The notes under the pieces were generated by a model. The model was not told the DNA's origin, searched no databases, and saw nothing but the letters and a program-made list of their open reading frames with translations. Positions 2,997-56,310 of a DNA stretch of 64,000 nt are shown piece after piece. Position numbers and translations under genes: made by a program. Position 1 is the first letter of the stretch. Each line of letters opens with the position of its first letter. This DNA is from an uncultured Clostridium sp. (GTDB taxonomy: Bacteria; Bacillota; Clostridia; TANB77; CAG-508), in NCBI GenBank assembly GCA_948470605.1, contig CAOKPI010000002.1, positions 19,015 to 83,014 of the forward strand. Direction: 5' to 3'.

Positions 2997-3040
2997 AATG
3001 TCAAGTAATATACAATTATACTTGACATTCTTTTATATTT
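2997..3040 (+). terminator. rho-independent terminator downstream of alr
   Basis: An 11-bp perfect stem aatgtcaagta/tacttgacatt is followed by a T-rich tract. Confidence 0.7.
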
Positions 3041-3072
3041 TGAGACAATTAAGAGCTGTCCCTCTTGTCTCA
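3041..3072. repeat. solo TGAGACAA..TTGTCTCA hairpin of the CTGTCCC orientation; its last three nt are the SPFH stop codon on the minus strand
   Basis: The sequence is tgagacaattaagagctgtccctcttgtctca followed by TTTTTT. It belongs to the same family as the elements at 28981-29100 and 38295-38416. Confidence 0.6.
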
Positions 3073-3972
3073 TTTTTTATCATCTTTTACAATTTCCTTC
3101 ATGGCACCTAGTGAACTTAAAGCATTGGTTGCTTCAAAAGGAATAAATACTTTATTAGCATCGCCTTTAGCCACTTCTTCTAAAGCCTCTAAAGATTTTA
3201 GTTGAACTAGTTTATCATTTGGGTCTGCCTTTTTCATAGCATCATAAACCATTTGAATTTCTTTTGCTTTTGCATCAGCCACTTCTCTAATTGCCTGTGC
3301 TTCACCGGCAGCTCTTCTAATTCTAGCTTCTTTATCTGCTTCAGCCTCTAAAATAGCAGCTTGTTTTTTACCTTCAGCAATGGTAATTGCTGATTGTCTT
3401 TGGGCTTCTGATTCTAGAATCAAAGCTCTTTTATTTCTTTCGGCATTCATTTCTTTTTCCATGGCATCTCTAATATCAGCAGGTGGCGTAATATCTTTAA
3501 TTTCTACTCGGTCGATTTTACAACCCCATCGATCGGTTGCCTCATCAAGAACCACTCTTAATTGATTATTAATACCATCTCTTGAACTGAAAGTTTCATC
3601 TAAATCCATTTTACCGATAATATCACGAATCGTTGTAATTGCTAAGTATTCAATACCTTTCTTTAAACTTTGAATTTCATACACTGCTTTCGCAGGGTCT
3701 GTTATTTGGTAGAATACAACCGTATCAATTGTAATGGTAACATTATCTTTTGTAATAACGCCTTGAGGTGGAATGTCCATCGTTTGTTGTTTTAAACTAA
3801 CCACACTTCTTACATGGTCAAAAAATGGAATGATAATGGTAAGACCAGCATCTGCTACTTTGTAGAACTTACCTAACCTTTCAATAATATACACCTCAGA
3901 TTGTTTAACGATTTTGATAGACATAAATGCTATTACTAGAATAATAACAAGTAAAACTAATAAAAACCACAT
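3070..3972 (-). CDS. SPFH/band-7 (stomatin/prohibitin-like, QmcA/YqfA-type) membrane protein
   Basis: It has an N-terminal TM helix followed by an SPFH domain (IIERLGKFYKVADAGLTIIIPF..DTVVFYQITDPAKAVYEI). The C-terminal coiled coil is Ala/Glu/Lys-rich. Confidence 0.85.
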   Translation of the reverse strand: MWFLLVLLVIILVIAFMSIKIVKQSEVYIIERLGKFYKVADAGLTIIIPFFDHVRSVVSLKQQTMDIPPQGVITKDNVTITIDTVVFYQITDPAKAVYEIQSLKKGIEYLAITTIRDIIGKMDLDETFSSRDGINNQLRVVLDEATDRWGCKIDRVEIKDITPPADIRDAMEKEMNAERNKRALILESEAQRQSAITIAEGKKQAAILEAEADKEARIRRAAGEAQAIREVADAKAKEIQMVYDAMKKADPNDKLVQLKSLEALEEVAKGDANKVFIPFEATNALSSLGAMKEIVKDDKK

Positions 3973-4776: not shown

Positions 4777-5784
4777 ATGAAAGAATTTAATTATCAAGAT
4801 TATTTAAAGTATCAAAAATTGAAAGCTAAAGAAAACAATAGTCTGTATGAATTACGAGAACCAGAGGAGAAATATCATGTACATCAACCACATGATAAAA
4901 TTTTTAAAACAGTGCTAAATGAAAAAAGGGAAATGGTGGAATTAATAAATAGAGTATTAGAGTTGAAAACAAAATTAAAGGAAGAAGAGATAGAAATATT
5001 TAATAATGAACATATCAGTTATATGTTTGAAGGTAGTGTATCAGATATCGTTTATAAAATGAAGGAAAAAGAAATATTTTTTTTAATTGAACATCAACAA
5101 AAAATTGACTATGATATGCCAAAAAGAATTTTAGAGTATGAAGTAGAAATTATAAAACAAGCAACGAGAGGAAAGAAGATGACAAAACAAGAACATAAGT
5201 TACCAAGAGTCATACCAATTGTTATCTATACTGGTAGTGGGAAATGGAATGTCGAGAAATATATAGAAGAGTGTCAAGAGATATTATCAAAGGCAGATTG
5301 CGTGAGGTTAGGAGAGTATTATGTATTAGATGTTAATAATTATACAAAGGAAGAATTGGAGAAAGATAATTTGTTTTTGTCTAAAATGTTGTTGCTAGAA
5401 AAATTAAAAACAGGAGAGGAAATATATCATATGTTAAATACTGCGATTGAGAAGGAAAATGACGAGAGAAATAAAGCTATTTTAAAAAGAATTATTGCTT
5501 TTATTTTAGATGAAAAGTTAAGTTTAGAAAATAGAGAAAAATTATTAAAAAAATTAGAAGGAGGAAAGAAAGATATGGTTTTAGAAGTGATTAGGAAAGA
5601 AAATGAAAGATTAATAAAAAAAGGAAAAGTAGAAGGGAAAATAGAAGGAGAAATAGAAATTTTAAAACGAGCGGTTAAAAATATGTTACAATTTGGAGAA
5701 GACGAAGAAAAAATTATGAAATATATCGGTATCAACAAAGAAGAATTAGGAAGAATAAAAAGAATGTTAAAAACAATTATTTGA
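4777..5784 (+). CDS. Rpn-family recombination-promoting nuclease/putative transposase (YhgA-like, PD-(D/E)XK)
   Basis: It has N-terminal HDKIFKTVL and FFLIEHQQKIDYDMPKRILEY motifs characteristic of Rpn/YhgA proteins. The C-terminus is a charged coiled coil. Confidence 0.7.
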   Translation: MKEFNYQDYLKYQKLKAKENNSLYELREPEEKYHVHQPHDKIFKTVLNEKREMVELINRVLELKTKLKEEEIEIFNNEHISYMFEGSVSDIVYKMKEKEIFFLIEHQQKIDYDMPKRILEYEVEIIKQATRGKKMTKQEHKLPRVIPIVIYTGSGKWNVEKYIEECQEILSKADCVRLGEYYVLDVNNYTKEELEKDNLFLSKMLLLEKLKTGEEIYHMLNTAIEKENDERNKAILKRIIAFILDEKLSLENREKLLKKLEGGKKDMVLEVIRKENERLIKKGKVEGKIEGEIEILKRAVKNMLQFGEDEEKIMKYIGINKEELGRIKRMLKTII

Positions 5785-6738: not shown

Positions 6739-6795
6739 ATCGAATGAAAAGAGATTGTAAACCGTAAATGAATGGAAAAGAAGGAGGAATTCAAA

Positions 6796-7371
6796 ATGTT
6801 ATGTGATAATTGTGGAAAAAGAGAAGCAAATGTGAGATATTCAGAAAATATAAACGGAAGAAGAAAAGAATTAAATTTATGCGAAGAATGTAGTAAAAAA
6901 TTAGGAATTAACCATATGGATTTTAATATGCCAATTGATTTTTCTAGTTTTTTTGGGGAATTTTTAGAGGATTTTGCAACACCAGAATTCATGCCATTGC
7001 TTCATGAGATAAAAGCATTAAAATGTAATCAATGTGGTTCAACTTTTGAAGATATAGCTAATACAGGAAAATTAGGATGTGGTAATTGTTATGATGTGTT
7101 TGAAGAAAGATTAGACCCAATTATTCGAAGAATACAAGGAGCCAATCGACATGTGGGAAGAGTTGGAAAAGTGATTGATAGTAAAATAGAGGAAAAAATG
7201 GCGAAAGAAACGAATGTAAAAGAGGAAAAGGCAAACCAGCCAAAGGAAAGTAAGAAAGAAAAACAGTTAGAAAAATTACAAGAACAGCTGAAACAAGTGA
7301 TTAAAGAGGAAAAATATGAAGAGGCAGCTAAAATAAGGGATGAAATTAAAAAAATAGAAAAAGAAAATTAA
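6796..7371 (+). CDS. mcsA: McsA, activator of the protein-arginine kinase McsB (zinc-finger/UVR domain)
   Basis: CxxC pairs occur at CDNCGK, CEEC, CNQCG and CGNC. The C-terminal UVR motif is EEAAKIRDEIKKIE. A GGAGG RBS is present. Confidence 0.85.
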   Translation: MLCDNCGKREANVRYSENINGRRKELNLCEECSKKLGINHMDFNMPIDFSSFFGEFLEDFATPEFMPLLHEIKALKCNQCGSTFEDIANTGKLGCGNCYDVFEERLDPIIRRIQGANRHVGRVGKVIDSKIEEKMAKETNVKEEKANQPKESKKEKQLEKLQEQLKQVIKEEKYEEAAKIRDEIKKIEKEN

Positions 7372-12762: not shown

Positions 12763-12800
12763 AAAACTTAAAATACGTAAATTTAAGTTTCGGTGTTTTT
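12763..12800 (+). terminator. strong rho-independent terminator
   Basis: The stem is acaccgaaaacttaaa..tttaagtttcggtgt, followed by TTTTT. Confidence 0.7.
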
Positions 12801-12898
12801 AGATGATTTATTGATACAAAAGTTATCTTAAAAATATACATAAGGTTGCAAAACCCAAAAAACATGATATAATAGGACTACAAAAAAATAAAAAATGG

Positions 12899-18578: not shown

Positions 18579-18652
18579 GATTCATCTCCTAAAAATTGAT
18601 AGTAGTATTATACCTAGATTTCTGATAATAGTCAATGTCAATTAACAGGTTT

Positions 18653-19043
18653 GTGACAAGAGGGGCGCCCTTTTTTGTCACACAAAATAATTCAAAAAAG
18701 GTTATTATGATTTTTTATTTGCAACTCCCAACATCACACAGTCTGTAAATTTTTAACAGACTGTAGTTCGTCGGTCCCCACGAATTGTTGCTTCATAAAA
18801 AATATAATAACCTTTGTGAGAAATAAAGGAAATGTGACAAGAGGGGAGTCCTTTTTTGTCACATAAAATAATTCAAAAAAGGTTATTATGATTTTTTATT
18901 TGCAACTCCCAACATCACACAGTCTGTAAATTTTTAACAGACTGTAGTTCGTTGGTCCCCGCGAATTGTTGCTTCATAAAAAATATAATAACCTTTGTGA
19001 GAAATAAAAGAAATGTGACAAAAAAGGGCGCCCCTCTTGTCAC
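18653..19043. repeat. tandem array of 2.15 copies of a 181-bp unit; each unit begins with a GTGACAA..GGGCGCCC..TTGTCAC hairpin and contains the ~110-bp core repeat
   Basis: Units start at 18653, 18834 and 19015, with about 95% identity between them. The terminal hairpin is inverted. The core matches the repeats at 25786-26007 (reverse complement) and 28104-28222. Confidence 0.8.
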
Positions 19044-19141
19044 AACCTATTAATTATGCACTTGCAAAAAAGACGAACTTATGATATAAAGGAAACAGAG
19101 AAAAGATAGAAAGAAAAACATCAGGAAAATGAGGTGAAAAA

Positions 19142-22008: not shown

Positions 22009-22911
22009 ATGCAAGGAATTATCATAGAAAATATCGCTAATTTATATCGAGTTTCCCCACTTACTCCCGGAACCAGTGGGGACAAAATCTATGAAGCAAC
22101 GGCGAGAGGAAAATTCAAAAAAGAAGAAATCTCACCTGTTGTAGGGGACTTTGTTGAATTTGAAATCACAGATGAGGTAAACAAAAAGGCAGTTATCAAC
22201 CAAATATTAGATAGAAAAGTGTATGTAAAAAGACCTAAACTTGCTAATATTACACAAATTGTATTTGTTGTTTCTAGCAAAGACCCTAAGCCAGATTTAT
22301 TGATGTTAGATAAACAATTAGCATTTGCTGAGTTCTTGGGAATTAAATCATTAATTGTATTAAATAAAACAGATTTAGATAGTAAAAAAGAATTTAAAGC
22401 AATTCGAGAAATATATGAGAACATAGGCTATGATGTTATAGAAACAGAAGCAAAAAATCAAAAGGGAATTGACCAACTAAAACATAAATTAAAAAATAAT
22501 GTCAACGCATTTTCTGGCAATTCAGGAGTGGGAAAATCTACTTTGATAAATGGTATTTTTGGACAAGATATGACATTAGAGGGAGAAATTAGTCAAAGGA
22601 ATAAAAGAGGAAAAAATACAACAACAGCTATTAAGTTATATCAAATAGATGATAATACTTATATTGCTGATACACCTGGATTTTCAACATTTTCTATGGA
22701 AGAAATTAAAAGGAAAGAATTAGCCAATTACTTTGTGGAATTTAAAAGTAAGATTGCAAATTGTGAGTTTGTGGGTTGTACTCATATTAAAGAGGAGAAT
22801 TGTGGTATCAAAAAAGCAATACAAAATGGAGAAATTTATCCAGCAAGATATGAAAGATTTTGTAAAATACAACAACAATTAAAAGAAAGAGAGGAAAAAA
22901 AGAAATGGTAG
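22009..22911 (+). CDS. rsgA: ribosome small-subunit-dependent GTPase A
   Basis: It has the circularly permuted GTPase motifs VLNKTDL, GNSGVGKSTLIN and DTPGF, and the zinc finger CEFVGCTHIKEENC. Codons 16-24 (nt 22054-22080) are a GC-rich hairpin homologous to the MITE terminal inverted repeats. Confidence 0.9.
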   Translation: MQGIIIENIANLYRVSPLTPGTSGDKIYEATARGKFKKEEISPVVGDFVEFEITDEVNKKAVINQILDRKVYVKRPKLANITQIVFVVSSKDPKPDLLMLDKQLAFAEFLGIKSLIVLNKTDLDSKKEFKAIREIYENIGYDVIETEAKNQKGIDQLKHKLKNNVNAFSGNSGVGKSTLINGIFGQDMTLEGEISQRNKRGKNTTTAIKLYQIDDNTYIADTPGFSTFSMEEIKRKELANYFVEFKSKIANCEFVGCTHIKEENCGIKKAIQNGEIYPARYERFCKIQQQLKEREEKKKW

Positions 22912-23614: not shown

Positions 23615-24769
23615 TTATTCTGCCTTTTTTTCTTTTAAAACAATATTAGAAACTATCATTCCTAATCCTAAGACATTGGCTACAAATCCAACAAGAGAAC
23701 CAACAAAAGGAATTAGGTTAATAGCCCATAAGATAAGACTTGCTAGAACTAATATACCAAACCTAACATTTCTTTTTTCAATCTTTAATTGTTGACAAAC
23801 GATATTGTTTATCGCAAGGATAAAGATGGAACTACTAATCATCATTAAAATAACTAATGTTACAAGTAGTAATAATGCTAGCTTAGAAGTTAATCCTAAC
23901 ATAAATAATAGAATAGCCACTATAATACTAGCAATTGGTGTTAAGATTCCAAATCCAATAACAGGTAAGATTTTCTTGGTTGTTAATAAAGAAACGGTAT
24001 TTTCCAAGAATTTAGGTGCACGCCATAAGCATAATAGCCAAATAACGATGACAGTAACAAGGAAAGTTCCTAAAGACATAATTTGCTTTTGAAAAGTATT
24101 ATTATCAAAAGACATTTCTTTTTCAAAGGTAGTTTCTCCTGCAACGACTCCTTCTGGAATAGAAATCTCTTGCTTTACTGAATAGGTTAAATTACCATTA
24201 ATAACACCTTGTGTATCAGTATCTTGTGAAAAATTAACGTTTTCACAATCTACATAAGCATTTCTTCCAATTGTACCGAAGATATTAACAGTATTAGAGC
24301 CTACTCGAATGTCTCTATACACCTCTCCGTTAATGGTAGTGTTTTCAGATGCTGCATATAAATCATAAACAGCTCCTGTTATAGTAACATTTTTAGAGAA
24401 AGTAAATAAGTTACTAAAAATATAGCCATCTTCTTCAATAGTAACTGTATTAGCACAGATAAAAGCATCTCCGCCAACTTGTGATTTAATAGTAACGTGA
24501 TTTGCTACGACAAATAAATTTCCATCAATAATATAATCAATGGTGACATCGTCGCCAGTTAGGTAAACATCAGACCTTTTAAAATTTTCATCACTTGTAT
24601 CAGTGGCATCAAGTTCAGAATTGTTGTTGGTCAAATCCACGGGTTGAGTTGCTTCATTTGGGGTTGCTGTATCATCAGCAGTTTCATTTTCTGCTCTTAC
24701 AATAGGAAAAGTAAGGGCTACCATAATTACCATTAAAATAGCAATTATTTTAAATTTGTTTTTTAACAT
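23615..24769 (-). CDS. hypothetical exported/membrane protein with an N-terminal signal peptide, a beta-rich repetitive extracellular domain and a C-terminal 4-TM region
   Basis: The signal peptide is MLKNKFKIIAILMVIMVALTFPIVRA. Repeats of the form VTI..G..V are present. Four TM helices occupy the last 150 aa. Confidence 0.55.
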   Translation of the reverse strand: MLKNKFKIIAILMVIMVALTFPIVRAENETADDTATPNEATQPVDLTNNNSELDATDTSDENFKRSDVYLTGDDVTIDYIIDGNLFVVANHVTIKSQVGGDAFICANTVTIEEDGYIFSNLFTFSKNVTITGAVYDLYAASENTTINGEVYRDIRVGSNTVNIFGTIGRNAYVDCENVNFSQDTDTQGVINGNLTYSVKQEISIPEGVVAGETTFEKEMSFDNNTFQKQIMSLGTFLVTVIVIWLLCLWRAPKFLENTVSLLTTKKILPVIGFGILTPIASIIVAILLFMLGLTSKLALLLLVTLVILMMISSSIFILAINNIVCQQLKIEKRNVRFGILVLASLILWAINLIPFVGSLVGFVANVLGLGMIVSNIVLKEKKAE

Positions 24770-24840
24770 GTAAATTCCTCCTTAAAATTTTATATATGAT
24801 ATGTAAAAAATATATATCTTTATTGTCTTTTTGTCAATGG

Positions 24841-25100
24841 ATTACAATTTTAAGTTTCGACTTTTTGCAAGTGAGGGTGGTCATATATCATTTTTGCAAC
24901 ACTGCGTAAGCGACCAGCTAACGCATACTGCCACTGTAATAAGCAAGCTTTAACAGTGGACAGCAAAACGAGCGAAACGAGTGCGATTGGAGCAACGTAC
25001 AGACTAGTATATTTTATTTTGGAAGTTGCGACACACAAAGTGTAAAAAAATGATATATGACCACCCTCACTTGCAAAAAGTCGAAACTTGAAATTACAAT
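24841..25100. mobile_element. 260-bp non-coding element with 55-bp near-perfect terminal inverted repeats and a GC-rich ~150-bp core, abutting the nth stop codon
   Basis: 24841-24895 is the reverse complement of 25046-25100 with 2-3 mismatches. The core GC content is well above the local background. No credible ORF is present: the 115-aa ORF at 24850-25197 is a palindrome artefact. Confidence 0.6.
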
Positions 25101-25735
25101 TATTTTTTAGCTTGATAAAACTTGCAAAGTTGATTGACAACACAAGTATCACATTTTGGCTTTCGTGCGCTACAAGTATTTCTTCCATGCCATACAAAAA
25201 TATGATTGATATCTTTTAAATATTCTTTTGGGAAAATTTTTAATAAATCCTGTTCTACCTTTTCAGGTTGTTTTTCTTTGGATAAACCAATTAGATTTGC
25301 TATTCTTTTTGCGTGCGTATCTACTGCAATTCCTTCTGCTATCCCAAACACTTCCAATAAAATAACATTGGCACTTTTTCTTCCAACACCAGCTAAACTG
25401 GTTAATTCATCCATCGTATGAGGAACTTGACCATCAAAATTTTCTAGAACTTGTTTGGCACATAATTTGATGTTTTTCGCTTTGTTTTTATAAAATCCAC
25501 AGGGATGGATGAGTTGCTCTAATTCATGAATGTCAATGTCTGCAAAGTCTTGAATGGTTTGACAACGTGAGAAGAGAGCAGGTGTTGTTAGGTTGACTCT
25601 TTCATCTGTACATTGGGCAGAAAGCATGACGGCAACGACTAATTCGAAAGGCGTTTTGAAATCTAGACTACAAGTGGCATCTGGGTATCTTTCTTTTAAT
25701 TGCTTAATTAAAGTAATGGCATCTTGTTTTTTCAT
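25100..25735 (-). CDS. nth: endonuclease III
   Basis: It has the HhH-GPD motif LTSLAGVGRKSANVIL and the 4Fe-4S cluster C-x6-C-x2-C-x5-C at the C-terminus (CSARKPKCDTCVVNQLC). Confidence 0.9.
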   Translation of the reverse strand: MKKQDAITLIKQLKERYPDATCSLDFKTPFELVVAVMLSAQCTDERVNLTTPALFSRCQTIQDFADIDIHELEQLIHPCGFYKNKAKNIKLCAKQVLENFDGQVPHTMDELTSLAGVGRKSANVILLEVFGIAEGIAVDTHAKRIANLIGLSKEKQPEKVEQDLLKIFPKEYLKDINHIFVWHGRNTCSARKPKCDTCVVNQLCKFYQAKK

Positions 25736-25785
25736 AACATCATCTCCTCGTATGTATTTTACAAAATAAAAGAGAATTCTTCAAT

Positions 25786-26007
25786 GTCCCCACTGGTTCC
25801 GGGTTTAAATGGGGATGCAATTGTAATTATATTTTAAATTAAAAGTTTATTCTATTTTTTATACAGTAACAATTCGGGGGGACCAGCAAGCGTACAGTCT
25901 GTTAAAGATTTACAGACTGTGCGATGCTGGGAGTTACAAATAAAAACTAGAATAAACTTTTTTATAAAAATTAATGCATCCCATTTAAACCCGGAACCAG
26001 TGGGGAC
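25786..26007. mobile_element. 222-bp MITE-like element with nested inverted repeats: an outer ~32-bp repeat GTCCCCACTGGTTCCGGGTTTAAATGGGGATG and an inner ~15-bp repeat, surrounding the conserved ~110-bp core in reverse orientation
   Basis: 25786-25820 is the reverse complement of 25973-26007. The core at 25861-25975 matches the reverse complement of 18706-18810. There is no ORF. Confidence 0.75.
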
Positions 26008-26087
26008 ATTTTCTAATTCTACATAAAGAGGAACAAATAAAGAGAAAAAATAATATAATATACAAAAACAAGGGAGGTAATAATCGT

Positions 26088-28364: not shown

Positions 28365-28970
28365 ATGTTAGAAAAAAATAGTTTAGTACCTTATGTAATT
28401 GAGCAAACAAGTAAAGGAGAGAGGTCTTATGATATTTTCTCAAGATTATTAAAAGACAGAATTATATTTTTAGGAGAAGATGTAAATCCAACTACATCTA
28501 GTTTAATCATTGCACAATTATTATTTTTGGAATCAGAAGACCCAGACAAAGACATTAATTTATATATTAATTCACCAGGAGGTTCTATTACAGATGGAAT
28601 GGGAATTATAGACACGATGAATTATATCAAATGTCCAGTTTCTACGATATGTGTAGGAATGGCGGCCAGTATGGGAGCAGCGCTTTTAGCAGCTGGGGAA
28701 AAAGGAAAGAGATTTGCCACACCAAATGCTGAAATTCTAATTCATCAACCATTAATTGGTGGTGGTGGAATTTCAGGGCAAACAACTGAAGTAAAAATTC
28801 ATGCAGACCACTTAGTAAAAACCAGAGATAAATTAAATAAATTCTTAAGTGATAGAACAGGTCAAACTATAGAAACGATCCAAAAAGATACAGAAAGAGA
28901 TAACTATATGACAGCAGAAGAAGCCTTAAAGTATGGCTTGATAGATGGTATTATGGATAAGAGAAAATAG
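28365..28970 (+). CDS. clpP: ATP-dependent Clp protease proteolytic subunit
   Basis: The catalytic-triad context is GMAASMGA (Ser), HQP (His) and a downstream Asp. A GGAGG RBS is present. Confidence 0.95.
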
Positions 28971-28980
28971 AAAGAAAAAT

Positions 28981-29100
28981 GAGACAAGAGGGACAGATTT
29001 CTTTTGTCTCATAAATTTGGATAGAAAAATGTCGAATAAAGAAAATGATAAAAAACGACAAAAAATGTGAGACAAAAGAAACCTGTCCCTATTGTCTCAA
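28981..29100. repeat. 120-bp MITE-like element made of two 32-nt TGAGACAA..GGGACAG../..CTGTCCC..TTGTCTCA hairpins in mutually inverted orientation around a conserved 56-nt spacer, directly upstream of clpX
   Basis: Hairpin A lies at 28981-29012 and hairpin B at 29069-29100. The copy at 38295-38416 has about 90% similarity. Confidence 0.75.
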
Positions 29101-29121
29101 AGGAGAAAGGAAAAATAGAAA

Positions 29122-32713: not shown

Positions 32714-32746
32714 ATGTGGGACATTATCTACGTCCCCATGTCCCAA
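32714..32746. repeat. REP-like hairpin TGGGACAT-TATCTACGTCCCC-ATGTCCCA between the response regulator and the kinase
   Basis: It contains the reverse complement of GGGGACGTAGATA, the same core as the elements at 51877-51904 and 53414-53448. Confidence 0.65.
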
Positions 32747-37435: not shown

Positions 37436-38293
37436 GTGACACAAGCAGACAAGCATTTTATAGAAACCTGTAAAGAAATTATTGAAAATGGTTATTCATC
37501 AGAAGGAACCAATGTACGTACTAGATGGGAAGATGGAACCGAAGCAAATTATGTATCCATCTTAGGAGTGTCCAATCAATACGATGTGGGAAAAGAATTT
37601 CCCATGATTACTTTAAGAAACAATACCAATACCGTAAAAAGAGCAATTGATGAAGTATTATGGATATGGCAAAAAAAATCCAATAAAATTGAAGAATTAA
37701 ATTCACATATCTGGGACCAATGGGCAGATAGTGAAGGAACCATCGGAAAAGCCTATGGTTATCAAATGGGAAAAAAGTACGAATTTAAGACAAAAGAAGG
37801 AATCCAAGAAATGGACCAAGTAGATTATGTCTTATATTTATTAAAAAACGACCCATCGAGTCGTAGAATTATGACTAACATATTTAATCATGCAGAATTA
37901 AAAGATATGAATTTAGAACCATGTGTATATGGCACACAATGGTTAGTAAAACAAGGAAAATTACACCTAATTTTAAATCAACGTTCACAAGATATGCTAG
38001 CAGCAAATGGCTGGAATGTCATGCAATATGCAGCAATACAATATATGTTCGCACAAGTAGCAGAATTAGAGATGGGAACTTTAACCCACAATATAGGAGA
38101 TTGTCATATTTATGATAGACATATACCTTTAGTAAAAAAATTAATAGAAGCAGAAAGTATGGACGCTCATCCAAAACTAATCATAAAAAATCCAACGAAA
38201 AATTTCTATGATTTTAAAGTAGAGGATTTCGAAATAGAAGGATATGCTTATAATAAAACAGTTAAATTAGGAAAAATTCCAGTAGCGGAATAA
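37436..38293 (+). CDS. thyA: thymidylate synthase (ThyA, long form)
   Basis: The active-site Cys lies in LEPCVYGTQWL. Further motifs are LNQRSQDMLAANGWN and GDCHIYDRH. The start is GTG with a GGGAGG RBS. Confidence 0.9.
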   Translation: MTQADKHFIETCKEIIENGYSSEGTNVRTRWEDGTEANYVSILGVSNQYDVGKEFPMITLRNNTNTVKRAIDEVLWIWQKKSNKIEELNSHIWDQWADSEGTIGKAYGYQMGKKYEFKTKEGIQEMDQVDYVLYLLKNDPSSRRIMTNIFNHAELKDMNLEPCVYGTQWLVKQGKLHLILNQRSQDMLAANGWNVMQYAAIQYMFAQVAELEMGTLTHNIGDCHIYDRHIPLVKKLIEAESMDAHPKLIIKNPTKNFYDFKVEDFEIEGYAYNKTVKLGKIPVAE

Positions 38294-38294
38294 A

Positions 38295-38416
38295 ATGAGA
38301 CAATGGGGACAGGTTTGAATTGTCTCATAAATTAAGTAGAAAAATGTCAAAATAAGAAGAAGACACAAAAAGTGACAAAAAAAGTGAGACAATTGAAACC
38401 TGTCCCTATTGTCTCA
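38295..38416. repeat. second full copy of the 120-bp double-hairpin TGAGACAA element, between thyA and folA
   Basis: Hairpin A lies at 38295-38327 and hairpin B at 38385-38416. The spacer is about 85% identical to the copy at 28981-29100. Confidence 0.75.
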
Positions 38417-38436
38417 AAAAGGGAGGAAAGTAACAG

Positions 38437-46081: not shown

Positions 46082-46113
46082 TCTGTGACAACAGGGGCGT
46101 CCCTTTTTGTCAC
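46082..46113. repeat. GTGACAA..GGGGCGTCCC..TTGTCAC hairpin, the same family as the 18653 array hairpins
   Basis: tgtgacaacaggggcgtccctttttgtcacat. Confidence 0.6.
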
Positions 46114-46282
46114 ATTCAAATTATTGATAAAAGGTTATTATAGTAAAAAAAAACAGAGAGAACTCTGTTTTTTATATTGTAGGAAAGTTCTCCTAGTAGG
46201 AGGGCTTTCTGTACAAGATAAATATGGGAATTTATAGAATTTCTTTGCGGTTGCCACCGCTTAGAAATTCTTAAATTCGTTT

Positions 46283-51300: not shown

Positions 51301-51894
51301 CAAATTGATGCACAAGCAACTATTAATACTATGCAATTACGAGAGTTAGATGAGCAGATGAGTTCACAAATGTTAATGGAAGAAGGAGTAAGAAATGAGA
51401 AACCAAAATTTGTGGATGGGCAAAAAATAAAATATATAGGAATTATTACTTCGATTAAAAAGAAATATACAAAAAATAATAAGATTATGGCTTTTGTTAC
51501 GATAGAAGATTTATATGGTACAGCTGAAATCATTGTATTTGAGAATGCTTACTTAACAGCAGGTAAGAGTTTAGTGGAAGAAAATATTGTTGTGGTCCAT
51601 GGTCGTTTGAGCATTCGAGAAGATGATACGACTACTATTATTGCTAATGAATTAAAAGATTTTGGCAATCAAAAACAGAAGATTTTTACCCTTGATATTA
51701 CAAATGCTAATGACGAACAAAAGGAAAAGTTAAGAGGGGCTTTGCGATATTTTAATGGGGATAGAAATAATATGAATGTGCAAATTAGGATAGAAGAAGA
51801 ACTAAAACCATGTGGACAGATTTATTGGACAGAGCAGATTCAAGGAGTGTTTGAAGATATTTTGGGAAAAGAAAATGTGGACATGGGGACGTAG
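48313..51894 (+). CDS. dnaE: DNA polymerase III alpha subunit (DnaE-type)
   Basis: The PHP domain is HLHIHSEFSLLDGA. The polymerase core motifs are GPGRGSGAGS and PDFDVDF. An OB-fold C-terminus is present. It is 1193 aa. The last 5 codons and the stop lie inside a REP-like hairpin. Confidence 0.95.
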   Translation: MSKFVHLHIHSEFSLLDGANRIKDLPVRAKELGMEAIAITDHGAMYGAIDFYKACKKEGIKPIIGCEVYVAPRSRFDKEPNIDNRYNHLILLAKNQQGYQNLSKLVSIGFVDGYYYKPRIDIEVLEKYHEGLICLSACLAGSVNQSLLKGDNEKAEEIALWHKKVFGEDYYIEIQNNGIKEQVLANQKLIALARKLEIPLVATNDAHYLKREDAYNHEVLLCIQTGKRMSDMDRMRFETDELYVKSPEEMIEYFKSFPDAIENTVKIAEKCNVEFEFGHTILPNYDVPEEFPTHYDYFKKLCDDGIKNRYGENPSQEILDRMEYELGVIQKMGYVDYFLIVWDFIHYAKTHGIPVGPGRGSGAGSIIAYAIEITDIDPMKYGLLFERFLNPERISMPDFDVDFCYEHRQDVIDYVSEKYGHDHVSQIITFGTMAAKMVIRDVARVLDVAYAEADSLAKMIPNELHITIQKALEQNKELKERYETDETVKKVLDIAMALEGMPRQASTHACGVVITKEPVDTYVPLYVRDDQISTQYIMTTLEELGLLKMDFLGLRTLTVIQDTIDLVKENRGIDVEFDKEMADPKVYKLWQEGKSCGIFQFESQGMTNFMKELKPDCLEDLIAGVSLYRPGPMDQIPRYVKGKLNPGHNEYTHPRLEPILNVTYGCMVYQEQVMQIVRDLAGYSLGRADLVRRAMGKKKLDVMAKEREVFIHGQVDDEGNVVVPGCVRNGIDEASANKIFDEMAEFAKYAFNKSHAACYAVIAYRTAYLKAYYPAEFMAATLNSFLGNLDKIPQYIDECKLLGIEILKPEINKSDAKFTTEYDGEFGESDPKLPISKKQSTTELLSQSKAKIRFGLGSIKNVGTVPVNSVVKERRENGPYKSFTDFCERIADEAVNKKCIESLIKAGAFDEFEQTRSTLLASFEGIIDSIQSSKKRGLAGQVSMFDLGSEQEKEEMNEVKYKFYEQEEMSNKELLSIEKEMLGIYISGHPLEKLRSQIDAQATINTMQLRELDEQMSSQMLMEEGVRNEKPKFVDGQKIKYIGIITSIKKKYTKNNKIMAFVTIEDLYGTAEIIVFENAYLTAGKSLVEENIVVVHGRLSIREDDTTTIIANELKDFGNQKQKIFTLDITNANDEQKEKLRGALRYFNGDRNNMNVQIRIEEELKPCGQIYWTEQIQGVFEDILGKENVDMGT

Positions 51895-51904
51895 ATGATG
51901 TCCC
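51877..51904. repeat. REP-like hairpin GTGGACATGGGGACGTAGATGATGTCCC overlapping the dnaE stop
   Basis: It carries the GGGGACGTAGAT core in plus orientation and is inverted relative to the copy at 53414-53448. Confidence 0.65.
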
Positions 51905-52011
51905 TATTTGTGCCTTTTTCTATAAAAAATTATGAGAAATAGTGTTGAGGTGAAATTTTTTGTTAATGAAATAAGTAATAAATGATAAGAATTTTGAAAG
52001 AGGAAACGATT

Positions 52012-52350
52012 ATGGAAAAAATTGAAATGTTAGAAGGAATTTTGAATAGTTATCCATATCCTATTGTTTTTGTAGATAATGATTATAGGATTAGATTTAT
52101 GAATAAAAATGCACAATACCATTATCGCAAAAAGGGAAAAAATCTAATAGGAAAGAGCATATTTGATTGTCATAATGAAAAATCTATTGGAAAAATAAAA
52201 AACACTTATGAAGAAATTAAAAAAACTGAAAAAGATGTATTTATATTTGTAAATTCTAGAAATCAAAGAGTTTATATGCAAGGTGTCAAAAATCAAAAAG
52301 GCGAATGGATAGGATTTATAGAAAGATTTGAATTAAACTTGCAAATGTAA
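52012..52350 (+). CDS. small PAS-domain protein
   Basis: The sequence YPIVFVDNDYRIRFMNKNAQ..GKSIFDCH is a PAS-fold signature. It is 113 aa. Confidence 0.5.
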   Translation: MEKIEMLEGILNSYPYPIVFVDNDYRIRFMNKNAQYHYRKKGKNLIGKSIFDCHNEKSIGKIKNTYEEIKKTEKDVFIFVNSRNQRVYMQGVKNQKGEWIGFIERFELNLQM

Positions 52351-52364
52351 ATAAAATAAGATTG

Positions 52365-52425
52365 CTACACTGCAATGGTTTCATTTATTTGTGAGAAAGT
52401 AAAATGAAACCATTGTAGTGTAGTA
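52365..52425 (+). terminator. very long hairpin (22-bp stem, 1 mismatch) after the PAS gene; a terminator or structured RNA
   Basis: ctacactgcaatggtttcattt..aaatgaaaccattgtagtgtag. Confidence 0.5.
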
Positions 52426-52574
52426 ATTTCTATCACTTATTATACTATGCTATTAAACAAAGCTTTTCAAAATATTTAAACATAGGATATTTAAAAATTC
52501 ACAAAAAAGCGTGCAATTTTATGGGAAATGTGATACCATAATTATACGAAAATCATTTTAATAATTTTATCAAG

Positions 52575-53414
52575 TTGTTTTATTCAAATAATTTTAATCA
52601 TGAACTAAATCCAATCATTAAAAAACAAAAAGAGGAGGTGAATGCCATACCGAGAGTAGCAAGAAAAAATCATATAAGTCAATATTTTCATATTGTTGTT
52701 AAGGGAATAAATGCAGAATATATATTTAGAAAAAAAGAGTATATGGAAAAATATAAGAATTTATTGAAAAAGAATGCAAAGAATCATCAAATCAATATAC
52801 TTGCTTACTGTATTATGAATAATCATGCCCATATATTATTATATACAAAAGAAAAAACTGAAATGGCTAGTTTTATGCAAAAAACCAATACTAGCTATGC
52901 TAAATATTATAATTTTTATGAAGATAGAGAGGGATATGTTTTTAAAGGACGATATTATACACAAAATATTTTATCATTAAAACAATTATATAATTGTTTG
53001 GTTTATATCCATAAAAATCCAATAAAGGCAAATTTAGTAACCAAAATGGAAGATTATCCGTTTTCAAGTTATCACGAATTCTTTAAAGATAAAGAGATAA
53101 TAGATGAACAAAGTATAAAATTGTTAGAATTAAAATTAGATAATTATTATAATGATTTAATAAAAATACATAGAATGGAAGATATTACAGATATATTTGA
53201 TATAAAAGAATACATAGATGCCCAACAAATCTTAAGAGAATATGAAAATAATTACAAGCAACCAATTAAAAAATTGAAGGAACAAAACGAAATTTTAGAA
53301 AAGATAATTGTTGATTTAAATGAAAAGGCAGGAATGCCAATTAGAAAGATAGCAGAAAAGATAAGTGTTAATAAAAACAAAGTGAATAAAATTTTAAAAG
53401 AAAAAAGAAAATAG
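52575..53414 (+). CDS. Y1 HUH transposase-family protein (IS200/RAYT-like REP-associated tyrosine transposase) with a C-terminal HTH-like extension
   Basis: The HUH motif is NNHAHILL. The catalytic Tyr context is FKGRYYTQNI. The N-terminal FHIVVKG is typical of the Y1_Tnp fold. The gene is flanked by inverted GGGGACGTA[G/C]AT hairpins. Confidence 0.65.
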   Translation: MFYSNNFNHELNPIIKKQKEEVNAIPRVARKNHISQYFHIVVKGINAEYIFRKKEYMEKYKNLLKKNAKNHQINILAYCIMNNHAHILLYTKEKTEMASFMQKTNTSYAKYYNFYEDREGYVFKGRYYTQNILSLKQLYNCLVYIHKNPIKANLVTKMEDYPFSSYHEFFKDKEIIDEQSIKLLELKLDNYYNDLIKIHRMEDITDIFDIKEYIDAQQILREYENNYKQPIKKLKEQNEILEKIIVDLNEKAGMPIRKIAEKISVNKNKVNKILKEKRK

Positions 53415-53448
53415 GGGACAAAATGTACGTCCCCATGTCCTCCATGTC
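53414..53448. repeat. REP-like hairpin GGGGACAAAATGTACGTCCCC plus ATGTCC repeats between the transposase stop and the mgtA stop
   Basis: The reverse-complement core is GGGGACGTACAT, inverted relative to the copy at 51877-51904. Confidence 0.65.
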
Positions 53449-56109: not shown

Positions 56110-56252
56110 TTGACATAGAAATAAATTATGCGAAGGTTAGATTTTCTTACCATTTTATGGCTTAGAAAATCTTAGCTCCGTTTTTTATTTATAAAGATTA
56201 TACCACTATTTTCAAAAGATTACACAAAAATATAGAAAAAAATATAAAAATA

Positions 56253-56284
56253 TGAGACAATGGGGACAGGTATTAGTTGTCTCA
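56253..56284. repeat. solo TGAGACAATGGGGACAGG..TTGTCTCA hairpin (A orientation) 27 nt upstream of the aminopeptidase start
   Basis: It is near-identical to hairpin A at 38295-38327. Confidence 0.7.
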
Positions 56285-56310
56285 TAAATTGAGAAGAAAA
56301 GAGAGGTATT

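Follow-up and report, generated by a model that had tools for sequence, protein, structure and literature searches.

The spacer between nth, the gene for endonuclease III, and a membrane-protein gene in an uncultured Clostridium sp. is occupied by a long inverted repeat enclosing an interior richer in GC than the surrounding DNA, which raises the question of whether a mobile element has landed there or whether the locus encodes a structured RNA. A first-pass annotation of the 64,000-nt stretch of DNA analysed here (the window) had left both alternatives standing, a MITE or an RNA gene, and our results support the former through dispersed copies, target duplications, empty sites, remnants, and the lack both of a conserved open reading frame and of an Rfam match. 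With a probability that we put at about 85%, a DNA transposon of 244 bp and of the non-autonomous kind (a MITE) has inserted here in an AT-rich 8-mer resembling ATTGCAAT and duplicated it. It is a new family of a known kind, previously undescribed in uncultured low-GC Clostridia, and offers clean filled, empty and remnant sites at one locus.

Both flanking genes lie on the minus strand, as had been described: nth at 25100-25735 (211 aa; Pfam HhH-GPD and HHH), and on the other side a gene for a DUF8173 membrane protein at 23615-24769. The feature ends at position 25100 and overlaps the nth stop codon TAA (25100-25102), which bears out the claim that it is inserted exactly at that codon; the shared position is the third and final base of the codon and the last base of the right-hand duplication. 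A promoter-like site for the DUF8173 gene (TTGACA-17-TATATT, 11/12; 24809-24837, minus strand) starts 3 nt past the duplication and is conserved in relatives that do not have the element. The 8-mer used as insertion target is bounded on one side by the final base of the nth stop codon; on the other side, 3 nt separate it from the -35 hexamer of the DUF8173 promoter.

The 55-nt inverted repeat noted earlier at 24841-24895 and 25046-25100 is real; in a repeat search its arms were 95% complementary and 150 nt apart, and its three mismatches were confined to the 11 nt farthest from the interior. At the outside of each arm, 8 nt form a perfect direct repeat, ATTACAAT, at 24841-24848 and 25093-25100, and the element proper is therefore 24849-25092, a length of 244 bp, with 47-nt terminal inverted repeats that differ by one mismatch (TTTAAG... 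vs TTCAAG...). The 260 bp originally assigned to the feature stand in extent, as 8 + 244 + 8, and what had been described as 55-bp arms resolves into 47-nt arms and 8-bp duplications. The left duplication is assigned from the sequence and from the single ATTGCAAT at an empty site in a related contig, L010; because the next base is T on both sides, a target duplication of 9 bp is equally possible.

Other copies were sought by scanning a genome collection with a 20-mer from the arm, which matched one MAG (CAOKVW01, ‘uncultured Clostridium sp.’) and yielded contigs L006 and L007; contigs of further relatives were found through nth homologues. An exact look-up of the nth protein returned contigs of the same strain, of which L001 and L002 carry an identical element. 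Related genomes, at least four in number, yield five full copies in all, which occupy four different places; one MAG has two of them. Beside the 244-bp copy in the window, the others measure 192-194 bp and about 225 bp. The window itself has one copy only, and a 24-mer from the arm occurs there at just two places, namely the two arms (0 expected in shuffles). On L006, a full copy at 6782-6975, between a superoxide-dismutase-like gene and an MBL-fold gene, has the same arms, a core shorter by 50 nt and a flanking perfect 8-mer, TTCATTAT. In L026, whose nth is 87% identical, a short-core copy (5309-5500) occupies the nth/DUF8173 spacer, and the perfect 8-mer on either side of it is another one, TTAAATTT. 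Perfect target duplications of 8 bp (9 bp possible) thus accompany three copies, those of the window, L006 and L026. A short-core copy upstream of nth on L012 (9747-9938) has an imperfect flanking repeat (ACAAATGAGG / ACAAATAGGG), and a copy on L007 (7520-7744; hereafter L007b), compared with the window by BLAST, has a core 85.6% identical, different arms and no target duplication.

Sites without the element complete this picture. L010, which encodes an nth protein 97% identical to that of the window, has an empty site (...AAAAAATAATTGCAATTTATTGACA...) with one copy of the target, ATTGCAAT, and its spacer of 78 nt equals 330 - 244 - 8. In L034, L035, L027 and L030 the element is absent from the orthologous place, the spacer is short and the same TTGACA promoter is present; L012 also lacks an element downstream of nth, but its spacer differs. 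Conversely, the window is empty at 32716-32745, where L007 carries copy L007b. L007 holds in addition a 67-nt remnant (117-183; hereafter L007a) at the orthologous nth site, flanked by ATTACAAT, the nth genes being about 94% identical in nucleotide sequence; the core has been lost through a deletion that lies between two TTGCAA microhomologies. An apparent arm fragment occupies the nth/DUF8173 spacer of L018. From the pattern of empty, filled and remnant sites among relatives it follows that the empty state is ancestral, that the insertions in the window and in L026 are independent events and that copies decay by internal deletion. The search for further copies and empty sites that had been proposed at the outset, with its five copies at four places and the single target in L010, therefore favours a MITE. 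Homologues of the MBL-fold gene that flanks the L006 copy provided no exact empty counterpart of that site, relatives without the element carrying a different insert there. Beside the L007 remnant, the start of the contig (L007:1-48) differs from the window at the expected DUF8173 start codon, with homology beginning at the ribosome-binding site; this could reflect a rearrangement or a chimeric contig end.

Alignment of the five copies also revealed an ordered interior. Inward of the left terminal repeat (24849-24895) lies a core block, GCAACACTGCGTAAGCGACCA (24896-24916), in which ACACT (24899-24903) pairs with AGTGT (25039-25043), so that the stem runs on into the core as ACACU/AGUGU, a pair kept in L007b through a two-sided change. 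There follow an optional 50-nt module of two small hairpins (24917-24966, from alignment and fold), which the window and L007b copies have and those of L006, L012 and L026 lack; a block, CGAGTGCGATTGGAGCAAC (24978-24996), invariant in all five copies; a hairpin, GCAAC...GTTGC (24992-25029), with a conserved stem base and a variable distal part; a third block, GTTGCGACACACAAAGTGT (25025-25043), nearly invariant with one substitution in L007b; and the right terminal repeat (25046-25092), ending in ...CGAAACTTGAA. Read on the nth strand, the blocks are ACAC.TTGTGTGTCGCAAC, GGTTGCTCCAATCGCACTCG and TGGTCGCTTA.GC.GTGTT, each invariant or nearly so in the five copies.

The interior had been described as far more GC-rich than its surroundings; it is richer, at 44% over the 150-nt core and 39.8% over the whole element compared with 30.8% for the window, but ‘far more’ overstates the difference, the GC content peaking at 49% in a 100-nt interval. 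The earlier statement that there is no ORF requires qualification too, since one minus-strand frame is open through the whole element; in the other copies stops or indels break this frame, and no frame is open across all of them. A small protein or type I toxin read from the open frame was rejected for this reason, and a chimeric six-frame translation of two copies, compared with a protein collection for spurious ORFs on other copies, gave no match. Either strand folds into one long hairpin that contains the interior, with free energies of -116 and -123 kcal/mol (z = -15 and -16 against dinucleotide shuffles). The Rfam comparison suggested with the first description found nothing consistent, at the gathering threshold across the window or in relaxed scans of three copies. 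Matches of the L026 copy to models of plant MITE-derived MIR hairpins, all below the gathering score, reflect only a generic AT-rich hairpin and no homology. An intrinsic terminator was considered and rejected, there being no U-tract after the stem on the nth strand. Small size, terminal inverted repeats, target duplication, non-coding sequence and dispersed, polymorphic copies together constitute the features of a MITE, in a family that is mobile, deletion-prone and marked by shared termini of 11-18 nt (TTYAAGTTTCGRYTTTTT).

The arms vary among copies in an unusual manner. The outer 11 nt (TTTAAGTTTCG, consensus TTYAAGTTTCG) are kept in four copies, the fifth, L007b, having a degenerate version; across the five copies the outer 11 nt and the inner 14 nt or so are conserved and the middle is variable. 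Pairing is nevertheless almost complete within each of four copies, with 46/47 Watson-Crick pairs in the window and 47/47 in each of L006, L012 and L026, that is 187/188 in total with no G·T. When these four copies are compared, 3-14 of the 47 arm positions show a change in both arms and 0-1 a change in a single arm. Two-sided changes affect 21/47 arm pairs, a number reached by none of 500 shuffles and compared with 2-5 in slid controls, and 23/64 when all tested pairs of arms and core helices are taken together; the core helices are nearly invariant and therefore carry little covariation information. The L007a remnant, too, has exchanged CGAC for CAAC in both arms. As many of the arm exchanges are transversions and wobble pairs are missing, we infer a cause at the level of DNA: one arm would be copied from, or corrected against, the other, by hairpin or template-switch correction, with selection on an RNA stem less likely. 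Template switching at quasi-palindromes is established in E. coli genetics. The internal blocks are better conserved than the middles of the arms, which is atypical for a MITE; most simply, the blocks would be cis-acting sequences required for propagation, although the pattern is also what one might see if the element harboured an RNA or a protein-binding module.

It is very improbable that the locus is instead a structured non-coding RNA gene, in which the core is closed by the long stem, serves the host at this position and keeps its arms paired through selection on RNA. Such a gene would agree with the strong fold, with two-sided changes in 23 of 64 pairs and with three core blocks conserved in five copies, as well as with two exchanges, one from G-C to A-U, seen by eye in the hairpin of the optional module, and another in the ACACU/AGUGU extension, and with weak, inward-facing promoter-like hexamers at the same arm positions across copies (TTTGCA-16-TATCAT; TTTACA-16-TATAAT by eye in L026). 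However, the orthologous site is empty in L010, L034, L035, L027 and L030, the core is deleted in L007a, copies with target duplications sit at unrelated loci, the 50-nt module is optional, and the sequence has neither an Rfam match nor a terminator after the stem on the nth strand. Arms in which 187 of 188 pairs are Watson-Crick, with no G·U and many transversions, are also unlike the product of selection on RNA. A single-copy RNA gene at an orthologous locus, the form in which the alternative was first raised, is refuted by this presence and absence among relatives; of the two signs by which it was to be recognised, compensatory change does occur in the arms, in Watson-Crick form only, and conservation as a single-copy locus does not. 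Strict Watson-Crick covariation can arise in mobile DNA, so covariation of the arms is, by itself, no evidence for an RNA gene. If an HUH/Y1 transposase moved the hairpin in single-stranded form, as with REP/RAYT or IS200/IS605-derived elements, this would account for the conservation of arm pairing rather than arm sequence; a Y1_Tnp gene flanked by REP-like hairpins is present in the window (52575-53414), and L007b lies between two inverted REP copies. The Y1 transposases of IS200/IS605 and REP are not known to make a target duplication and insert beside a fixed short motif, whereas three copies here have 8-bp duplications of different sequence, the empty site has a single target, no fixed short motif is common to the left flanks and the REP family differs in sequence (GGGACAT...); this route is hence most unlikely.

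Inverted repeats around some 150 bp, directly upstream of a gene for a surface or membrane protein and with promoter-like hexamers in the arms, might equally suggest a switch in which a recombinase recognises the repeats and inverts a promoter controlling that gene. One orientation is nevertheless shared by the window, L001 and L002, three assemblies of the strain made independently, direct repeats lie outside the inverted ones, the same element recurs at unrelated loci, the native promoter stands outside the element and is conserved in relatives without it, and no recombinase is encoded among the neighbouring genes, leaving such a switch scarcely credible. An assembly artefact, the chimeric fold-back of a contig by the assembler, has a negligible probability: two contigs of the same strain, L003 and L004, do dissolve into poly-G inside the element and the contigs of several relatives break inside a copy, but the window agrees exactly with L001 and L002, two full-length contigs assembled independently, and diverged copies occur in other assemblies made with other assemblers. 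The G-rich stretches (L003:3655-3738 and L004:2115-2162) begin about 19 nt into the element and look like a read failure or poly-G artefact, and the relatives' contigs L013-L017 start 29 or 54 nt inside a copy. Hairpins of this sort break short-read assemblies and sequencing reads, which makes them relevant to the quality of MAGs.

If the element is a MITE, a DDE-type transposase encoded elsewhere would act on it in trans, binding the conserved termini and making staggered cuts of 8 or 9 bp; we infer this mechanism from the target duplication. Neither the window nor about 350 kb of sequence from relatives contained an autonomous element bounded by these termini, and we found no transposase gene next to termini of the TTYAAGTTTCG type. 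Plasmids and phages had no BLAST match to the element or to one arm, and viral contigs, scanned for the arm, for two core patterns and for the terminal motif, yielded at most single chance-level matches that had no inverted partner. A 19-mer from the arm had two chance matches in JGI metagenomes, with no further similarity. A Pfam scan of the larger ORFs in the window detected two transposase-like genes, neither of which is a DDE transposase, and the literature, when searched for comparable MITEs in Clostridium, yielded plant and unrelated papers only.

Bacterial MITEs such as Correia/NEMIS of Neisseria and ERIC/IRU of enterobacteria are non-coding, intergenic sequences of 100-300 bp with terminal inverted repeats and a target duplication; they form long hairpins when co-transcribed, lie near promoters or gene ends, and vary in presence or absence among strains. 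The present element resembles them in size, intergenic and non-coding character, inverted repeats, duplication, hairpin, position at a promoter or gene end and polymorphism, but it duplicates 8 (or 9) bp rather than TA and has no sequence similarity to them. It also departs from bacterial MITEs in its 47-nt arms, near-perfectly paired in each copy yet different between copies, and in internal blocks more conserved than the arm middles. The 8-9-bp duplication is of the same length as in MITEs derived from ISL3, IS256, IS1595, IS6, IS66 and ISAs1, whereas the termini, TTYAAGTTTCG, are unlike the ends known for these families, for example those of ISL3 (GGCTCTT), IS6 (GG...) or IS66 (GTAAGCG). 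REP/BIME sequences with their RAYT (the REPtron) are likewise intergenic repeats that form hairpins with preserved pairing, and a RAYT-like gene with REPs is found at 51879-53440 of the window; REPs, however, are about 20-40 nt long, are not known to make a target duplication and have another sequence, whereas the element has duplications and a core of 100-150 nt. Eukaryotic foldback elements and MITE-derived loci of miRNA precursors similarly combine long, near-perfect arms with a short unique loop, although there is no homology and the host here is bacterial.

The first-pass annotation, which saw no similarity of the interior to the other repeat families, must be amended in that the terminal motif is common to elements with unrelated interiors, namely an element of about 310 nt and an insertion in the greA spacer, both in relatives, and a hairpin at 12768-12815 of the window. 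A motif shared across unrelated interiors suggests a superfamily served by one kind of transposase. The element of about 310 nt lies upstream of nth (L026:4310-4625, L025:482-790, L020:1-110 and L018:1-60), with arms of about 65 nt, termini TTTAAGTGTCAGCTTTTT / ...AAAAAACTGAAACTTAA, the same terminal motif and an unrelated interior, and ends 2-3 nt before the -35 hexamer of nth, TTGACA. The insertion in the greA intergenic spacer (L026:14830-14970, L028:10267 and L019:10652) starts with TTCAAGTTTCGGTTTTTTCAAT, like the arm of the L026 copy, and has a different interior and no matching right end; it is absent from L018:10540-10742 (...TTTTCTTCAAGTTTAATCC...). The window hairpin at 12768-12815 (AAAACACCGAAAACTTAAAATACGTAAATTTAAGTTTCGGTGTTTTT) has the terminal motif TTTAAGTTTCGG in both arms and resembles a terminator, with a stem and a T-run; a superfamily member may have collapsed to this form, or the resemblance may be fortuitous.

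Several insertions lie close to promoters. By eye, the L026 copy is arranged as duplication + TTA + TTGACA, that of L006 as duplication + TAA + TTGCCT-17-TAAATT, and a 38-nt mini-hairpin upstream of nth in L034 and L035 as TAGAATT + AA + TTGACT. In the short nth/DUF8173 spacer the spot beside the promoter may perhaps be the sole position tolerated, and promoter-proximal targeting, with few independent cases, is a lead only. A more ambitious reading seems to us unlikely: that the element, rather than being a mere deletion product of an IS, propagates through a DNA hairpin in which arm is regenerated from arm in the course of transposition or between its rounds, carries a conserved module of about 100 nt that is either a protein-binding platform acting in cis or a small RNA, and is one branch of the TTYAAGTTTCGRYTTTTT superfamily, which prefers to land 2-3 nt upstream of sigma-70 -35 hexamers. 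The sites behind this last component are the promoters of the DUF8173, nth and MBL-fold genes, and if true it would imply that the transposase of the element directs it to promoters.

As to the host, read-through from nth into the element would give a stem of about 50 bp, a likely substrate of RNase III, and the element would cut off the DUF8173 promoter from its upstream DNA; as the insertion touches a DNA-repair gene at its stop codon and a promoter at its upstream edge, it may affect the stability of the mRNA or the setting of the promoter. Directly upstream of the nth promoter the window has another hairpin element, unrelated to the first (25773-26020), with 41-nt arms (TCCCCACTGGTTCCGGGTTTAAATGGG...) that are 90% complementary and no obvious target duplication. 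The same spot is occupied in L012 by the family studied here, in L026 and L025 by the other family, of 310 nt, and in L034 and L035 by the 38-nt mini-hairpin; the stretch just before the -35 hexamer of nth is a hot spot for insertions.

Hairpin repeats of other kinds are also dense in this genome. The Y1_Tnp ORF of the window (52575-53414, plus strand; 279 aa; IS200-like transposase, E = 1.2e-9) is flanked by inverted REP-like hairpins, GGACATGGGGACGTAGAT...ATGTCC, at 51879-51933 and 53386-53440. The whole interval looks like a RAYT with its REPs, a REPtron from which the GGGACAT...ATGTCCC hairpins at other places of the window, such as 32716-32745 and 22054-22091, probably derive. A second transposase-like ORF, of 335 aa (4777-5784), matches Pfam Transposase_31, a YhgA/Rpn-like putative transposase or recombination-promoting nuclease (E = 9e-23), and has near it members of a TGAGACAA...TTGTCTCA repeat family (3033-3110). 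Further intergenic repeat families are found at 18651-19045, 28962-29101, 38289-38432, 56235-56300 and 46084-46125; one consists of a 181-bp tandem pair bounded by hairpins of the form TGTGACAAGAGGGG(C/A)G(C/T)CC...TTGTCACA, and another is dispersed, with the form TGAGACAA-GGGACAG-TTGTCTCA.
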